Positions 1 through 5,347 of a stretch of 5,347 bases of DNA are shown here, one piece after another. A program made the position numbers and the translations under genes. The stretch lies in IMG/VR virus record IMGVR_UViG_2698536307_000017. One strand, given 5' to 3'. The stretch's first letter is position 1. Every line of letters starts with the position of its first letter. Origin of the DNA: a virus. Its lineage: Duplodnaviria; Heunggongvirae; Uroviricota; Caudoviricetes. The notes under the pieces are model-generated. The model was not told the DNA's origin. It saw nothing but the letters and a program-made list of their open reading frames with translations, and made no database searches.

Positions 1-93
1 CCTGGCACGGCTGGGACGGAAGTCGCTGTCGTTCTCAAAATCGGTGGAGCTGCATGACAAAGTCATCGGGCATTATCTGAACATAAAACACTA

Positions 94-189
94 TCAATAA
101 GTTGGAGTCATTACCGCTGTGAAGATGATGGGCATACATGATGCGAACAACCAGAACGCAACAAACAAAAACTGCAATGCGTTTTTCAT
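94..189 (-). CDS. hypothetical small hydrophobic protein (31 aa)
   Basis: Below the ORF-track length cutoff; found by hand. Minus-strand ATG at 189..187 is preceded by a perfect AGGAGG (plus 194..199) with a 4-nt spacer; stop TGA at 96..94. Translation [31 protein letters not shown] has one hydrophobic segment and a signal/lipobox-like LFASC. No homolog recognised. Confidence 0.3.
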
Positions 190-727: not shown

Positions 728-1079
728 TCATTCATCGCCCCACTCATCACAATATGCTTCGACCGGAGTTTTTCCCGCTTCATAGTCATCACGCTAGGAT
801 TCGACATCAGCAGCACTTCCACCGCGTAACTCACCATAGTCCATTAATAGTTCATCCCGCTCTTCAAAACTGATGTTATATTTAGCTGAACAAAAATCAG
901 CCACTTTGTTCTTCCTCATCGTCTTTTATTTCGTGGTATGAGTAATTGCAGTAGTTAAAGAAAATTTCTTATGCTCCGTCATGAATTTCCTCAGGTGTTG
1001 CGTCATCGTCCACTTCGAATACATCCTCAAAATCTCCACCAGCTATTCCCGTTTCAATAATAATTTTGAACTTTCGCAT
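728..1079 (-). pseudogene. decayed remnant of an acidic protein-coding gene (fragments in two frames with internal stops)
   Basis: Hand translation of the minus strand. Frame A: ATG 1079..1077, MRKFKIIIETGIAGGDFEDVFEVDDDATPEEIHDGA, TAA at 971..969, then sense codons EIFFNYCNYSYHEIKDDEEEQSG to TGA 899..897. Frame B: MRKNKVADFCSAKYNISFEERDELLMDYGELRGGSAADVES from ATG 919..917, TAG at 796..794, then RDDYEAGKTPVEAYCDEWGDE to TGA 730..728. The same acidic composition in both frames suggests one ancestral ORF broken by a frameshift and nonsense codons. Confidence 0.3.
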
Positions 1080-1341: not shown

Positions 1342-1698
1342 TTAAAAAATCAGAACGCCGTGCGGCCTCAACACCCGAAAGGCTTCTTTAAATCTCTGTC
1401 GCGAATCATCACGCCAGGCATCTTTATTCAGCCGTCCATATTTCTTTCCCATCCAGGCGTTATCACCAACACTCTCAAGATGCGGAGGGTCTAATACAAC
1501 CATCGAAAAAGATGCGTCTGCAAATGATAATGCACGAAAATCTGCGATAATGTCAGGGCTGATAATCAAGCGTCTCCCATTGCGTAATGTGTATCCTTCT
1601 TTTCTGATATCGCTGAATATCGCCCGTTCGTCAGACTTATCGAACCAGAACATGCGGCTGCCACAGCACATATCAAGAATGGTTGCCGGTGCACTCAC
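1342..1698 (-). CDS. class I SAM-dependent methyltransferase-like protein (amino-methyltransferase type, DPPH motif), short and probably truncated or decayed
   Basis: 118-aa ORF from the track. Motif I-like ILDMCCGSR (aa 7-15), acidic end of strand 2 (AIFSD), motif IV tetrapeptide D-P-P-H (aa 70-73, nt 1480..1491), then FRVLRPHGVLIF. Start is GTG at 1698..1696, overlapping the upstream ORF stop as GTGA. It is too short for a complete methyltransferase fold; after TAA 1344..1342 the frame stays open for 29 more sense codons to TAA 1254..1252. Confidence 0.5.
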   Translation of the reverse strand: MSAPATILDMCCGSRMFWFDKSDERAIFSDIRKEGYTLRNGRRLIISPDIIADFRALSFADASFSMVVLDPPHLESVGDNAWMGKKYGRLNKDAWRDDSRQRFKEAFRVLRPHGVLIF

Positions 1699-1961
1699 TG
1701 CGCCACGTCCTGAAAATTACCCTGATAGAAAGCCAGTATGCGCTGCATAACTTCGCTCTTCCGGCACTCGCGACAGATTATGTTTAGGCGACTGTCGTAG
1801 CGACGTATTTCTCCGTCAGGTGATGACCAGATAAGGTCCGGATCAACCACAGCAGGTTTCTTCACCTTTGCCCTCGAGAGTTTTTTGCGGGCGTTTTGCC
1901 AGTCCTTACGCGCCTGTTCAGAGGGGAATAACCCGTATCCGGAGCTTAAGTTGCACGCCAT
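1695..1961 (-). CDS. hypothetical protein (88 aa from ATG 1961, or 56 aa from GTG 1865 with a GAGGG Shine-Dalgarno)
   Basis: ORF-track ORF whose stop overlaps the methyltransferase GTG start by 4 nt. ATG 1961 has no Shine-Dalgarno; the in-frame GTG at 1865..1863 has GAGGG 5 nt upstream. No motif recognised beyond a single CxxC (CRECRK). It may instead be the frameshifted N-terminal part of the methyltransferase. Confidence 0.3.
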   Translation of the reverse strand: MACNLSSGYGLFPSEQARKDWQNARKKLSRAKVKKPAVVDPDLIWSSPDGEIRRYDSRLNIICRECRKSEVMQRILAFYQGNFQDVAQ

Positions 1962-2019
1962 TGGGTGGGTTAAGCATAAATGTATTCCTGGTGCTAAATG
2001 GCCCGAAATTCAGGCAGAG

Positions 2020-3918
2020 ATGCGCATCTGGAAAAAACGTCGCGAAGGTGAACGCAAGGAAACCGGAAAATACACGTCTGTTGTTGATCTCGCCCGCGCC
2101 AGAGCCAATCAACAGTACACTGAAAATTCAACAGGAAAAATCAGCCCGGTCATTGCTGCCATTCATCGCGAATACAAGCAGACATGGAAAACACTGGATG
2201 ACGAACTGGCCTACGCTCTCTGGCCTAGTGATGTGGATGCCGGAAACATTGACGGCAGCATCCATCGCTGGGCAAAAAAAGAAGTTATCGACAACGACCG
2301 CGAAGACTGGAAGCGTATCTCGGCATCAATGCGCAAACAGCCTGATGCCCTTCGCTACGACCGCCAAACTATTTTTGGCCTTGTCCGTGAGCGTCCGATC
2401 GACATTCACAAAGATCCCGTAGCACTGAACAAATATATCTGCGAATACCTGACGACAAAGGGCGTGTTTGAGAATGAAGAAACAGACCTGGGCACTGTTG
2501 ATGTTCTCCAGTCATCAGAAACACAAACTGATGCAGTGGAAACTGAGGTATCTGATATCCCAAAAAATGAAACCGCGCCGGAAGCTGAACCATCTGTAGA
2601 GCGTGAGGGGCCGTTCTATTTCCTCTTCGCAGATAAGGACGGAGAAAAATACGGTCGCGCAAACAAACTCTCTGGTCTGGATAAGGCACTGGCTGCTGGC
2701 GCCACTGAAATCACAAAAGAAGAATATTTTGCCCGAAAAAATGGCACATACACGGGCTTACCGCAAAATGTAGATACCGCTGAAGATTCAGAACAACCAG
2801 AGCCGATAAAAGTTACCGCTGACGAAGTAAACAAAATTATGCAGGCAGCCAATATCAGCCAGCCTGACGCCGATAAGTTGCTTGCTGCATCACGTGGTGA
2901 ATTTGTTGAAGGGATTAGTGACCCGAATGATCCGAAATGGGTTAAGGGGCTCCAGACCCGCGATTCTGTGAACCAGAACCAGCATGAATCGGAACGGAAC
3001 TACCAAAAAGCGGAACAAAACAGTCCAAATGCGTTACAAAACGAGCCAGAAACGAAACAGCCTGAACCAGTAGCGCAACAGGAAGTGGAAAAAGTCTGCA
3101 CCGCCTGCGGTCAGACCGGCGGCGGCAACTGCCCTGATTGTGGCGCGGTGATGGGCGACGCAACATACCAAGAAACATTCGATGAAGAGTATCAGGTTGA
3201 AGTTCAGGAAGATGATCCGGAGGAAATGGAAGGCGCTGAACATCCACACAAGGAGAACACTGGCGGCAATCAGCATCACAATAGCGATAATGAAACTGGC
3301 GAGACGGCAGATCACCCAATTAAGGTGAACGGTCATCACGAAATCACATCCACCAGCAGGACGTGTGACCATCTAATGATCGACCTTGAAACCATGGGAA
3401 AAAATCCTGATGCCCCGATCATCTCAATAGGTGCAATATTTTTCGATCCGCAAACCGGAGATATGGGACCGGAATTTAGTAAGACTATCGATCTGGAAAC
3501 TGCTGGCGGAGTCATTGATCGGGACACCATTAAATGGTGGCTTAAGCAATCACGCGAAGCGCAATCTGCCATTATGACCGATGAAATCCCGTTAGATGAT
3601 GCACTGTTACAATTGCGAGAATTTATCGACGAAAACTCCGGTGAATTTTTTGTTCAGGTTTGGGGAAATGGAGCCAACTTCGACAACACGATTTTGCGCC
3701 GTTCATACGAACGGCAGGGGATCCCCTGCCCGTGGCGTTACTACAACGATCGCGATGTACGCACAATCGTTGAGCTGGGGAAAGCCATAGACTTCGATGC
3801 CAGAACGGCTATTCCATTCGAAGGTGAGCGCCATAATGCACTTGATGACGCCCGTTACCAGGCAAAATACGTTTCAGTTATCTGGCAAAAACTGATCCCG
3901 AGTCAGGCTGATTCTTAA
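2020..3918 (+). CDS. RecE-like (exonuclease VIII N-terminal-like) protein fused to a C-terminal DEDDh (DnaQ-like) 3'-5' exonuclease domain
   Basis: Long ORF from the track (677 codons from TTG 1885). In-frame start candidates are TTG 1885, TTG 1951 (GGAG 6 nt upstream) and ATG 2020; I prefer ATG 2020 because the translation upstream of it is Cys/Trp-rich and not protein-like. The C-terminal domain (nt 3376..3915) carries all three DEDDh motifs: Exo I D-x-E in MIDLETMG, Exo II GNGANFD (3664..3684), Exo III H-N-A-L-D-D (3832..3849). Upstream are acidic linkers and a Cys4 knuckle C-x2-C-x7-C-x2-C (3097..3141). The segment DADKLLAASRGEFVEGISDPNDPKWVKG and the Cys cluster match my recollection of the RecE N-terminal region; this is unverified. 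Confidence 0.85.
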   Translation: MRIWKKRREGERKETGKYTSVVDLARARANQQYTENSTGKISPVIAAIHREYKQTWKTLDDELAYALWPSDVDAGNIDGSIHRWAKKEVIDNDREDWKRISASMRKQPDALRYDRQTIFGLVRERPIDIHKDPVALNKYICEYLTTKGVFENEETDLGTVDVLQSSETQTDAVETEVSDIPKNETAPEAEPSVEREGPFYFLFADKDGEKYGRANKLSGLDKALAAGATEITKEEYFARKNGTYTGLPQNVDTAEDSEQPEPIKVTADEVNKIMQAANISQPDADKLLAASRGEFVEGISDPNDPKWVKGLQTRDSVNQNQHESERNYQKAEQNSPNALQNEPETKQPEPVAQQEVEKVCTACGQTGGGNCPDCGAVMGDATYQETFDEEYQVEVQEDDPEEMEGAEHPHKENTGGNQHHNSDNETGETADHPIKVNGHHEITSTSRTCDHLMIDLETMGKNPDAPIISIGAIFFDPQTGDMGPEFSKTIDLETAGGVIDRDTIKWWLKQSREAQSAIMTDEIPLDDALLQLREFIDENSGEFFVQVWGNGANFDNTILRRSYERQGIPCPWRYYNDRDVRTIVELGKAIDFDARTAIPFEGERHNALDDARYQAKYVSVIWQKLIPSQADS

Positions 3919-3929
3919 TGTTCAACTGT

Positions 3930-3961
3930 CGCCGGTTGTGACTGGTATTCTGCAACCGGCG
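3930..3961 (+). promoter_or_regulatory. stem-loop in the exonuclease-xis intergenic region
   Basis: cgccggttg (3930..3938) pairs with caaccggcg (3953..3961): 9-bp stem, 14-nt loop, 12 nt after the exonuclease stop and 30 nt before the xis ATG. No T-tract follows, so it is not a classical terminator. Confidence 0.3.
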
Positions 3962-3990
3962 CTCGTCTGATGTAAGAGATAAAGAAATCG

Positions 3991-4242
3991 ATGAGCGAAG
4001 TAATCATGATTGTCTCTCCCGGCAAATGGGTATCCGAAGAGCAGTTAATTGCGCTGAAAGGAATAAAAAAAGGTACGTTAAAAAAGGCCCGGGAAAAATC
4101 GTTTATGGAAGGAAGGGAATATAAGCATGTCGCTCATGACGGTATGCCATGGGATAACAGTCCATGCTTTTACAACCTGGAAGAAATTGATCGCTGGATT
4201 GAGCGCCAGGCATCAGCGAGACCAAGACGTCATCTTACTTGA
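3991..4242 (+). CDS. xis: excisionase-like protein (lambdoid prophage putative Xis, DUF1233-type)
   Basis: 83-aa ORF immediately upstream of and co-directional with the integrase. Small basic protein with the GREY...W...EEIDRWI pattern I associate with putative excisionases of Rac-type prophages. The assignment rests on position and pattern memory. Confidence 0.65.
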   Translation: MSEVIMIVSPGKWVSEEQLIALKGIKKGTLKKAREKSFMEGREYKHVAHDGMPWDNSPCFYNLEEIDRWIERQASARPRRHLT

Positions 4243-4276
4243 CTAAAAGCCACACTAACTAATGAGAGAAGTTGAA

Positions 4277-5335
4277 ATGAAATATCCGACAGGCGTGGAA
4301 AACCATGGAGGGAAATTACGTATCTGGTTTGTTTATAAAGACGTAAGAGTCAGGGAAAATCTGGGGGTTCCTGACACAGCAAAAAACAGGCGCGTTGCAG
4401 GTGAACTACGCTCCTCTGTTTGTTACGCAATAAAAACTGGTGTTTTCGACTATGCAAAACAGTTTCCCTCCTCACGCAATCTGGAAAAATTTGGTGAGGC
4501 CCGACAAGATTTAACCATAAAAGAACTGGCTGAAAAATTTCTGGCACTGAAAGAAACTGAAGTCGCCAAAACATCACTCAACACATACCGTGCCGTCATC
4601 AAAAATATCCTGAGCATAATCGGTGAAAAAAATCTTGCCTCATCGATTAATAAAGAAAAATTACTGGAGGTTCGTAAAGAGTTACTGACTGGATACCAGA
4701 TCCCCAAAAGTAACTATATTGTTACACAACCAGGGAGATCGGCTGTAACTGTAAATAATTACATGACAAATCTTAACGCCGTGTTCCAGTTTGGTGTTGA
4801 TAACGGTTACCTGGCAGATAATCCGTTTAAGGGGATCTCGCCATTAAAGGAATCAAGAACCATTCCGGATCCTCTTTCGCGGGAAGAATTTATCCGTCTT
4901 ATCGATGCGTGCAGAAATCAGCAAGCAAAAAATTTATGGTGTGTTTCTGTTTATACTGGAGTTCGCCCTGGTGAGCTGTGTGCACTTGGATGGGAGGACA
5001 TAGATCTGAAAAATGGAACAATGATGATCAGGAGAAATTTAGCAAAAGACCGTTTCACGGTACCAAAAACACAGGCGGGAACCAATCGGGTCATTCATCT
5101 TATTAAGCCAGCAATCGACGCTCTCCGGAGTCAGATGACATTAACGAGACTGAGCAAAGAGCATATCATTGATGTTCACCTCAGAGAGTATGGCAGAACA
5201 GAAAAACAAAAATGCACCTTTGTTTTGGAAGGTGCGAATAAGCAGGTCATTTCTTCCCAAGCTGACTCGCTGATTAAAATTTCTCGGATCTGGGCCGATT
5301 TTTTTCCCGCAAACACATCGAATCAGCCTATTTAG
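4277..5335 (+). CDS. int: phage integrase (tyrosine recombinase, lambda-type with N-terminal arm-binding domain), apparently C-terminally truncated
   Basis: N-terminus MKYPTGVENHGGKLRIWFVYKDVRVRE is an arm-type DNA-binding domain as in IntR-like integrases. Core box YTGVRPGELCALGWEDIDL holds the conserved Arg; the beta-hairpin Lys lies in VPKTQAGTNRVIHL. The ORF stops at TAG 5333..5335 with no HxxR, second His or catalytic Tyr. The track ORF starts at ATG 4262; ATG 4277 has a purine-rich GAGAGAAG upstream and matches the usual start of the family. Confidence 0.8.
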   Translation: MKYPTGVENHGGKLRIWFVYKDVRVRENLGVPDTAKNRRVAGELRSSVCYAIKTGVFDYAKQFPSSRNLEKFGEARQDLTIKELAEKFLALKETEVAKTSLNTYRAVIKNILSIIGEKNLASSINKEKLLEVRKELLTGYQIPKSNYIVTQPGRSAVTVNNYMTNLNAVFQFGVDNGYLADNPFKGISPLKESRTIPDPLSREEFIRLIDACRNQQAKNLWCVSVYTGVRPGELCALGWEDIDLKNGTMMIRRNLAKDRFTVPKTQAGTNRVIHLIKPAIDALRSQMTLTRLSKEHIIDVHLREYGRTEKQKCTFVLEGANKQVISSQADSLIKISRIWADFFPANTSNQPI

Positions 5336-5347
5336 GCTATTTTTTCC

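Follow-up and report, generated by a model that had tools for sequence, protein, structure and literature searches.

The DNA stretch analyzed here, 5,347 nucleotides long (IMG/VR virus record IMGVR_UViG_2698536307_000017; referred to below as the window), carries a phage exonuclease gene directly upstream of the excisionase gene xis, and a first-pass annotation had remarked that this gene stands without an annealase, the single-strand annealing protein of the RecT, Bet, or Erf type. We conclude with high confidence that the gene is a truncated member of an annealase-less Qin/Tritos lineage of lambdoid phages, in which a RecE-like scaffold is fused to a nuclease domain of the DEDDh type. Searches of intact relatives indicate that the annealase is absent from the whole phage lineage and not merely beyond the edge of the window. 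In the loci that we sampled, the nuclease type joined to the scaffold and the presence of recT are cleanly coupled, the 5'-3' form occurring with RecT and the predicted 3'-5' form without it.

Annealase genes are absent from the window and from intact relatives

Within the window, neither Pfam searches of the main open reading frames (ORFs) nor six-frame tblastn searches with lambda Bet, two types of RecT, and Erf revealed an annealase, the best tblastn match reaching an E value of only 0.2, so that the earlier statement that no frame of the window encodes such a protein is borne out. Taken alone, this absence weighs little: the window is a 5.3-kb fragment lying between two insertion sequence (IS) ends, and the 4.9 kb directly upstream of the gene are deleted. 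The absence becomes meaningful because intact relatives show it as well. In the phages HannyBb and Tritos, the genes follow the order cI, small ORFs (ydfA-C), dicF, dicB, ydfD, the exonuclease gene (exo), xis, and int. Exo is the one large gene of the early-left operon and comes last in it, and these phages have no gene for an annealase, a single-stranded DNA-binding protein, or a RecBCD inhibitor. The same order is found with different xis/int cassettes and integration sites in PPompW (82%, with a frameshifted copy of the gene), in 640R1 (72%), and in an IMG/VR locus (L099). The first-pass annotation had proposed that an annealase be sought outside the window, and none was found in the flanks of the gene in HannyBb, Tritos, PPompW, and 640R1 or in the larger sets of loci described below.

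The whole genome of Tritos contains no annotated annealase. Its unassigned proteins matched FRG, DUF977, DUF968/HNH, or DUF1391 in Pfam or PHROGs or had no match, none of them being an annealase, and its non-structural half holds no unannotated ORF of at least 120 amino acids outside the known genes. Among 80 IMG/VR loci encoding the same protein, no match to lambda Exo, Bet, or Gam or to RecT was obtained; in these loci, the same-strand ORFs between the repressor gene and the nuclease gene reach at most 205 amino acids and encode DUF1391 (YdfA), DicB, YdfD, or small acidic proteins. In a second set of loci in which the scaffold carries the DEDDh-type nuclease (DEDD loci), the upstream same-strand ORFs of at least 130 amino acids encode repressors, Rha/Ash, DicB-YdfD, or proteins with no Pfam match, and none is annealase-like. 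The window and 123 DEDD loci likewise gave no match to Bet, RecT, Erf, the single-stranded DNA-binding protein (SSB) of phage epsilon34, lambda Gam, or Abc2.

Nuclease type and recT are coupled across scaffold loci

We scored 160 IMG/VR loci encoding the scaffold for the type of nuclease and for the presence of Bet, two RecT types, and Erf, and a locus was counted if at least 1.2 kb of downstream sequence was available. An annealase gene was present in all 36 counted loci whose scaffold carries a PDDEXK nuclease domain, the type found in RecE, with recT beginning at the stop codon of the nuclease gene or overlapping it; one further PDDEXK locus was too short to score. None of the 115 counted DEDD loci had an annealase gene, and neither did 8 further DEDD loci with short flanks. 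The second RecT type was needed for these counts, as the RecT of Rac-SA53 alone misses most of the recT genes beside PDDEXK scaffolds. Pfam verified the identity of the recT gene next to the common PDDEXK scaffold (PF03837, E value of 2e-56).

The view of the first-pass annotation that the gene is not one half of a recombineering pair of nuclease and annealase agrees with these counts and with the gene content of the intact relatives, and the comparison with the Rac prophage that it had proposed is informative in the same respect. Rac has the order recE-recT-ralR-ydaC-xis-int, whereas the window has exo-xis-int. The two systems have the central scaffold in common and occupy the same early-left slot upstream of xis-int, yet recT follows recE in Rac and no recT follows the nuclease gene in the Qin form.

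The full-length protein joins a RecE-like scaffold to a DEDDh exonuclease domain

In HannyBb and Tritos, the full-length protein has 823 amino acids and shares 97-98% identity with the window copy. The N-terminal region (residues ~1-260) forms a PHROG of its own and had no match in our local copy of Pfam; two new Pfam families, PF27430 and PF27432, are precomputed for the full-length protein, and the N-terminal domain of RecE, PF06630, is not present in the Qin form. A central segment, encoded at 2866..3309 on the + strand of the window, is common to RecE. In a BLASTP comparison with the RecE of Rac-SA53, residues 474-621 of the full-length protein are 74% identical to RecE residues 471-611, including a CxxC...CxxC zinc ribbon (the Cys4 motif lies at 3097-3144), and a weaker match covers residues 262-336. 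The C-terminal part, encoded at 3370..3885 (+ strand), is a DEDDh exonuclease domain of the Rv2179c-like/DexA-like kind: PF16473 matched the last 172 residues of the ORF, corresponding to residues 642-813 of the full-length protein, with an E value of 1.9e-67 and a score of 226.8 bits against a cut-off of 27, over profile positions 2-177 of 177. All five catalytic residues (D, E, D, H, and D, encoded at window nucleotides 3382, 3388, 3682, 3832, and 3847) are intact, and their columns are invariant in an alignment with T4 DexA and two phage homologs.

The first-pass annotation had set the gene apart from the Rac-type and lambda-type modules, and in our results the nuclease is indeed neither RecE nor lambda Exo. 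The RecE equivalog model of NCBIfam, NF007259, gave 282.7 bits against a cut-off of 1269 and aligned over profile positions 271-600 of 877 only, whereas the RecE of Rac-SA53, used as a control, scored 1354.6 bits. The full-length protein has no match to the PDDEXK family PF12684, which RecE does match, and tblastn with two RecE nuclease domains found nothing in the window. Being far under the NF007259 cut-off and without a PDDEXK domain, the protein cannot be called RecE or exodeoxyribonuclease VIII. RecE ends in a 5'-3' nuclease of the PDDEXK type, in contrast to the DEDDh domain, with its predicted 3'-5' polarity, of the Qin form. The frequent annotation as "exodeoxyribonuclease VIII" arises because the middle part is shared with RecE, and we caution that many records wrongly give this name to scaffold-DEDD proteins. 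The name assigned to the window gene by PGAP is "3'-5' exoribonuclease domain-containing protein."

A search of 1.84 billion representative proteins, for which the query was the window-encoded sequence outside the nuclease domain, found only 193 scaffold relatives. Fifty-two of these are long, and they divide into 17 with a PDDEXK domain, 11 with a DEDD domain, and 24 without a recognizable nuclease domain; both N-terminal types, the Qin type and the RecE type (PF06630), were found with each of these C-terminal states. Scaffold proteins that lack a nuclease were called "RecE-2" in a study of 325 lambdoid phages and their recombination modules (Zheng, Casjens, Davidson, Amundsen & Smith, Genome Res 2025, PMC12315714). 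Proteins with less than 30% identity in their N-terminal halves share 97-99% identity in the central-plus-DEDD part, and the ratio of nonsynonymous to synonymous substitution rates (dN/dS) is ~0.1 both for this part and for the DEDD domain; this combination suggests a cassette that was exchanged recently and is subject to purifying selection.

In one of the 52 long representatives, a single ORF encodes both the RecE-like scaffold and a RecT domain (PF03837, E value of 1.2e-42); this protein is either a natural recE-recT fusion or an artifact of gene calling or of a frameshift. In the Shigella phage 75/02 Stx, a 682-amino-acid "exodeoxyribonuclease VIII" (L006, 6068-8116) combines the shared middle part with the N-terminal domain of RecE, has no nuclease domain, and is encoded directly upstream of gam-bet-exo. 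This arrangement suggests that the scaffold may have a role of its own beside a complete Red-type module.

An AlphaFold2 model of the full-length protein, built from an alignment of 22 sequences (the available homologs are 88-95% identical), had a mean predicted local distance difference test score (pLDDT) of 36.9. Its sole confident part was a small strand-strand-helix unit within the acidic, low-complexity middle (residues 385-435, window 2599-2751; pLDDT of 81-85). A profile search of the PDB with 52 diverse scaffold proteins returned the RecE nuclease domain, 3H4R, and nothing for the scaffold, and a literature search on Rv2179c in phages and on ydfE yielded nothing relevant.

The window copy is a truncated pseudogene of the ydfE family

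In the window, the gene appears as a long ORF of 677 codons on the + strand (1885-3918), with a TTG start at 1885 and a TAA stop at 3916-3918. True homology begins only at 1936; the TTG and the codons that follow it up to the junction, 16 in all, are fortuitous. What remains, at 1936..3918 (+ strand), is a 5'-truncated pseudogene of the ydfE family encoding residues 164-823 of 823 (the C-terminal 660 codons), that is, RecE-like scaffold and DEDDh nuclease; against the HannyBb protein it shows 98% identity over residues 150/164-823, and PGAP describes it as "incomplete, missing N-terminus." The first-pass annotation had placed the gene at 3376-3918, which is incorrect: the ATG at position 3376, which encodes the M of MIDLETMG, is internal, and the C-terminal domain had been mistaken for the whole gene. 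A separate start of the domain at this ATG seems unlikely, the closest AGGA lying 16 nucleotides upstream, too distant to persuade.

The truncation results from a deletion whose junction, at 1935..1944, consists of 10 bp common to both flanks. By blastn, window 1712-1944 corresponds to positions 3922-4154 of Tritos (L004) and window 1935-5226 to positions 9042-12333 of the same record. Compared with Tritos and HannyBb, the first of these segments belongs to a DUF977 gene and the second contains the exonuclease gene from nucleotide 489 on, xis, and int. About 4.9 kb are thus missing, comprising a replication gene, cro, cI, ydfA-C, dicF, dicB, ydfD, and exo codons 1-163, and the early-left promoter and the exo ribosome-binding site were lost with them. 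The deletion, for which the 10 common base pairs suggest a microhomology-mediated mechanism, joins the antisense strand of the DUF977 gene to the nuclease gene and so creates the apparent ORF of 677 codons. The window copy is consequently a promoterless, 5'-truncated pseudogene, and it is almost certainly inactive because its first 163 codons, the ribosome-binding site, and the early-left promoter are all deleted.

The pseudogene ydfE (b1577) of the Qin prophage in E. coli K-12 is the same gene at the same chromosomal site. Residues 1-256 of K-12 YdfE are 100% identical to the N terminus of the full-length 823-amino-acid protein, and the DNA of window 1935-2213 matches that of K-12 without a single difference. 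The two copies have decayed in complementary ways: K-12 retains the 5' part of the gene (cut by IS2) together with dicA-dicB, without the nuclease domain and xis, whereas the strain of the window retains the 3' part of exo and xis, without the 5' part and the dic region.

A stem-loop occupies the spacer between exo and xis

The reading of the first-pass annotation at the 3' end of the gene is accurate in each detail: the stop codon ends at 3918, a 72-bp spacer with a hairpin follows (3919-3990), and xis starts at 3991. The stem-loop lies just after the stop codon, at 3930..3961 (+ strand), where an inverted repeat forms a perfect 9-bp stem (3930-3938 paired with 3953-3961) around a 14-nucleotide loop. 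The spacer RNA has a predicted folding energy of -23.8 kcal/mol, with a z score of -2.6 relative to shuffled sequences, and the stem-loop had no match in Rfam. An intrinsic terminator and a promoter region were both rejected, as the stem is not followed by a T-run and no sigma-70-like site is present. The structure sits exactly at the point where homology ends between phages with different xis/int cassettes; in 640R1, a compensatory G-C to A-T double change preserves the stem, and in PPompW another stem-loop stands in its place. The stem-loop might represent a 3' structure of the RNA, or it might mark the module boundary.

Relatives of the nuclease domain occur alone in other phages

Lambdoid phages of the mEp460/PhiR47_1 type encode a stand-alone DEDD protein of ~190 amino acids, 53-59% identical to the domain studied here, directly upstream of xis. 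Its gene occupies the same slot, the last of the early-left genes before xis, and its N terminus (MNNLMIDLET) coincides with the point at which the fused domain begins; unlike the Qin form, the gene is unfused and is preceded by Ea22, DUF551, and YfdQ/R-type genes, not by dicB-ydfD.

In the Salmonella phage epsilon34, the DnaQ-like protein gp34 is 56% identical over 179 amino acids to the DEDD domain of the window, and both genes belong to an early-left operon. Gp34 is a stand-alone protein of 182 amino acids whose gene is packed between the SSB gene and abc2, next to a gene for an Erf-type annealase, whereas the domain of the window is fused to the RecE-like scaffold and has none of these annealase, SSB, or RecBCD-modifier neighbors. 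The first-pass annotation had argued that a 3'-5' nuclease is unfit to partner an annealase; at the level of gene order, the presence of gp34 within an Erf-SSB-Abc2 module contradicts this argument. DnaQ-like nucleases of the epsilon34 kind have been counted among the members of recombination modules, and sporadic DnaQ-type genes near int were noted and not so counted (Zheng et al. 2025, PMC12315714).

The sole relative with a solved structure that sequence searches detected is a 227-amino-acid "Exodeoxyribonuclease" (PDB 8KEL/8KEN; E value of 1.5e-6 for 8KEL), the sequence of which is that of T4 DexA, a 3'-5' DNase. DexA belongs to the same DEDDh fold family, and the equivalents of D7, E9, D119, H186, and D191 are conserved, yet the overall identity is only 27%. 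Two further DexA residues, W152 and D169, are replaced by Tyr and Ala in the window domain, in a loop where the alignment is less certain. The tetramer-forming Asp of DexA, D90, is retained (it is Ala in EcD, a DexA homolog of E. coli), and DexA S87 aligns with a Pro. Bacterial homologs of DexA are widespread, and EcD was shown to cleave T4 DNA containing 5-hydroxymethylcytosine (5hmC) and to protect cells (Kang et al., NAR 2025, PMC12153337). EcD is a different protein from that of the window, judging from the cloning primers alone, which encode a start of MIDTET... and an end of ...TIPETYD. In contrast to T4 DexA and to EcD, described as "HREX," the window gene has the context of a temperate-phage early operon.

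The module is of the nuclease-only Tritos type

The annealase-less arrangement is already catalogued. In Table 1 of Zheng et al. 2025 (PMC12315714), Tritos stands as prototype for a class comprising four phages, scored as having a nuclease and as lacking an annealase, an SSB, and an anti-RecBCD function. These four phages are rich in Chi sites, from 21 on the top strand and 6 on the bottom strand down to 7 and 2, and the thesis of that study is that phages without a recombination system of their own use host RecBCD through Chi (PMC12315714). The window resembles the Tritos-type module in its dicB-ydfD-exo-xis-int lineage order, in the 97-98% identity of its protein to those of Tritos and HannyBb, and in the lack of annealase, SSB, and anti-RecBCD genes, the module being accompanied by a host-like Chi density in intact phages; it differs in being a decayed remnant that has lost the entire immunity region along with the 5' end of the gene and whose int is cut by an IS.

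Our own count for Tritos gave 9 Chi sites on the top strand and 2 on the bottom strand in 46 kb, where ~0.7 per strand would be expected by chance (46,360/65,536); the 8.3-kb stretch of lambda from int to pL contains none. Pattern counting located two Chi sites in the window, both as GCTGGTGG on the - strand. The site at 3350..3357 falls within the nuclease gene and corresponds to a top-strand Chi site of Tritos; the other is at 1036..1043. Two sites in 5.3 kb of remnant come from a stretch too short to judge the Chi content of the phage.

Separately, the early-right region of Tritos (L007, 33876-35210 and 36334-38090) contains candidate defense genes, namely, one whose product has an FRG domain and matches PADLOC PDC-S15 and a pair resembling RmrT/RmrA (an ImmA/IrrE-type peptidase with a helix-turn-helix motif).

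The surrounding locus is a decayed Qin-type prophage

The window is the left end of a decayed lambdoid cryptic prophage of the Qin type, next to rspB. Its sequence is 100% identical to E. coli chromosomes beside rspB-rspA-ynfA, and at least 80% of it is carried by 168 of 5426 complete E. coli genomes. Its membership of Qin is indicated by the site, which is flanked by rspB-rspA-ynfA, by the ydfE-family gene upstream of int, and by DNA identity to K-12 ydfE and intQ. The left boundary of the remnant is the terminal part of an IS1 copy (1..115): in a matching E. coli locus (L001), the coding sequence of the IS1A transposase ends at window position 100, and many genomes match only from 116. The right boundary is the end of an IS5-like element, ISKpn26 (5227..5347), as annotated and as found by comparison of window 5219-5347 with the ISKpn26 end in L001 (98%).

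Downstream of exo lie the excisionase gene xis, an ORF of 83 codons (3991..4242, + strand; PF06806, E value of 1.6e-31; "excisionase family protein" in PGAP), and a tyrosine integrase gene (4277..5226, + strand; PF12167 and PF00589), which is cut at about codon 317 of 426 by the IS insertion and is intact at 19277-20557 in L001. With its integrase truncated by the ISKpn26 end, the remnant is unable to excise. On the - strand, an intact gene of the phage early-right region (1342..1698) encodes a class I S-adenosylmethionine-dependent methyltransferase of 118 amino acids, identified by PGAP and fitting the type II/orphan methyltransferase models of PADLOC (MTase_II, E value of 4.5e-45). Adjacent to it, at 1695..1946 on the - strand, lies a C-terminal fragment of a DUF977 gene, a pseudogene that matches PF06163 at profile positions 62-134 only, is labeled "missing N-terminus" by PGAP, and corresponds to the DUF977 gene of Tritos. 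In identical genomes, the - strand of 116-1341 carries two further decayed genes, a hypothetical one that is frameshifted (~310-731) and one for DUF7167 that is interrupted by an internal stop (~897-1079). The window contains no Rfam family and no tRNA.

Discussion

As the arrangement was known and the locus is the well-known Qin prophage, the missing annealase is not in itself a new observation; what the present analysis adds is the explicit picture of a domain swap and the clean coupling of nuclease polarity with the presence of recT. We propose that the DEDDh enzyme would act during lytic growth as a DNA exonuclease that trims 3' ends, perhaps removing 3' tails or flaps or shaping ends for host enzymes, rather than as the resecting partner in a recombinase of two components. 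Strand exchange would then be delegated to host RecBCD-Chi-RecA, following Zheng et al. 2025, and such delegation would explain the host-like Chi density of Tritos-type phages. This specific role is put forward tentatively, at somewhat less than even confidence; taken together with the anatomy, it forms the explanation that we moderately favor overall. As for the origin of the fusion, a stand-alone DEDD gene beside xis may have replaced the part of a recE-recT module formed by the PDDEXK domain and recT.

The dicB operon is repressed by DicA in K-12 lysogens. Since exo is the last gene of the early-left operon and no promoter-like site of its own was detected upstream of it in HannyBb, its product would be expected after induction or infection and not in the lysogen. 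DNA is the more plausible substrate than RNA by analogy with the closest relatives that have been characterized or whose context is informative, namely, the DNase T4 DexA and epsilon34 gp34 of a recombination module.

Four other explanations deserve consideration. The kinship with DexA, marked by the 8KEL match with 27% identity and all catalytic residues kept, raises the idea of a defense nuclease, a DexA-like "HREX" destroying the 5hmC-type modified DNA of invading T-even phages, for which no annealase would be needed, and the first-pass annotation had suggested a function of this class; the activity of EcD against T4 DNA and its protection of cells (Kang et al. 2025, PMC12153337) lend this idea some appeal. 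Nevertheless, W152 and D169, the DexA residues to which Kang et al. assign 5hmC recognition, are Tyr and Ala here, EcD is not the same protein, the nuclease is fused to a RecE scaffold, and the PADLOC match is to a generic DEDDh model (E value of 1.8e-5). Typical defense genes are expressed in lysogens, whereas the operon hosting exo is repressed there. We therefore consider a defense function improbable. An RNA-directed 3'-5' exoribonuclease resembling Rv2179c of M. tuberculosis, acting for example on the early-left transcript that carries DicF or on host RNAs, would fit the best Pfam match, which is to the Rv2179c-like exoribonuclease family, the name given by PGAP, and the location of dicF in the same operon in intact phages. 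It would fit poorly with the 56%-identical homolog inside the DNA recombination module of epsilon34, with a DNase as the only relative of solved structure found by sequence, with a scaffold held in common with the DNA exonuclease RecE, and with the lack of any Rfam family or structured RNA partner in the window, and we rate it slightly lower, as rather improbable.

The pseudogene of the window, the frameshifted copy of PPompW, and the N-terminal stub to which the gene is reduced in K-12 might also be read as signs that the scaffold-DEDD fusion is pure debris, an accident of prophage decay without function in any genome. At the level of the family, this reading is already disfavored and, in our estimate, very improbable: full-length copies exist in isolated phages, the main cluster at 90% identity has 23,183 member sequences, DEDD domains occur in 11 clusters at 50% identity and on two N-terminal types, and dN/dS is ~0.1 with the catalytic residues kept. 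Least probable of all, and by our reckoning highly unlikely, is a hidden annealase, either in a small early-left ORF or in the N-terminal scaffold itself. There are indeed small ORFs without a Pfam match, comprising a "MRLTMEFKDLP" family of 116-216 amino acids and one ORF of 205 amino acids, and the scaffold has no known function even in RecE; against this, the unassigned ORFs are variably present across loci, the cI-dicB interval of Tritos holds only ORFs of 72-78 amino acids, and the scaffold with PDDEXK is always accompanied by a separate recT (36/36), which argues that the scaffold is no substitute for an annealase.

Several points weigh against the proposed role in 3'-end trimming with host-mediated strand exchange. 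The polarity and substrate of the nuclease are predictions from its sequence, and its Pfam family is named after an exoribonuclease. Moreover, inhibition of homologous recombination is the effect generally reported for 3'-5' exonucleases (Zheng et al. 2025 citing Lovett 2011, PMC12315714), and any help to host recombination is something we infer. The structure model, with its mean pLDDT of 36.9, is unusable. The 160 surveyed loci are mostly close E. coli prophages, for which reason 36/36 against 0/115 stems from a small number of independent events and does not amount to statistical proof. Finally, annealases were detected with a panel (Bet, two RecT types, and Erf) and with Pfam on candidate ORFs, and a new annealase fold in the small ORFs would escape both.

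The window itself has little import, being a dead fragment of a well-known cryptic prophage in which the absence of an annealase is a property of the lineage. The coupling between nuclease polarity and RecT, on the other hand, offers a handle on the role of the RecE N-terminal region and on that of a lone 3'-5' exonuclease in lambdoid phages that rely on RecBCD and Chi. As a more speculative extension, which we consider unlikely although worth stating, the scaffold of the RecE family could be a modular platform that takes one of two nucleases or does without: a PDDEXK domain of 5'-3' polarity, in every case accompanied by RecT, or a DEDDh domain of 3'-5' polarity, in no case accompanied by an annealase. 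The DEDDh form, a "polarity-swapped RecE," would then constitute a distinct, annealase-independent end-processing system that works with host RecBCD-Chi-RecA. If this were true, it could reveal what the long-unexplained N-terminal region of RecE does.

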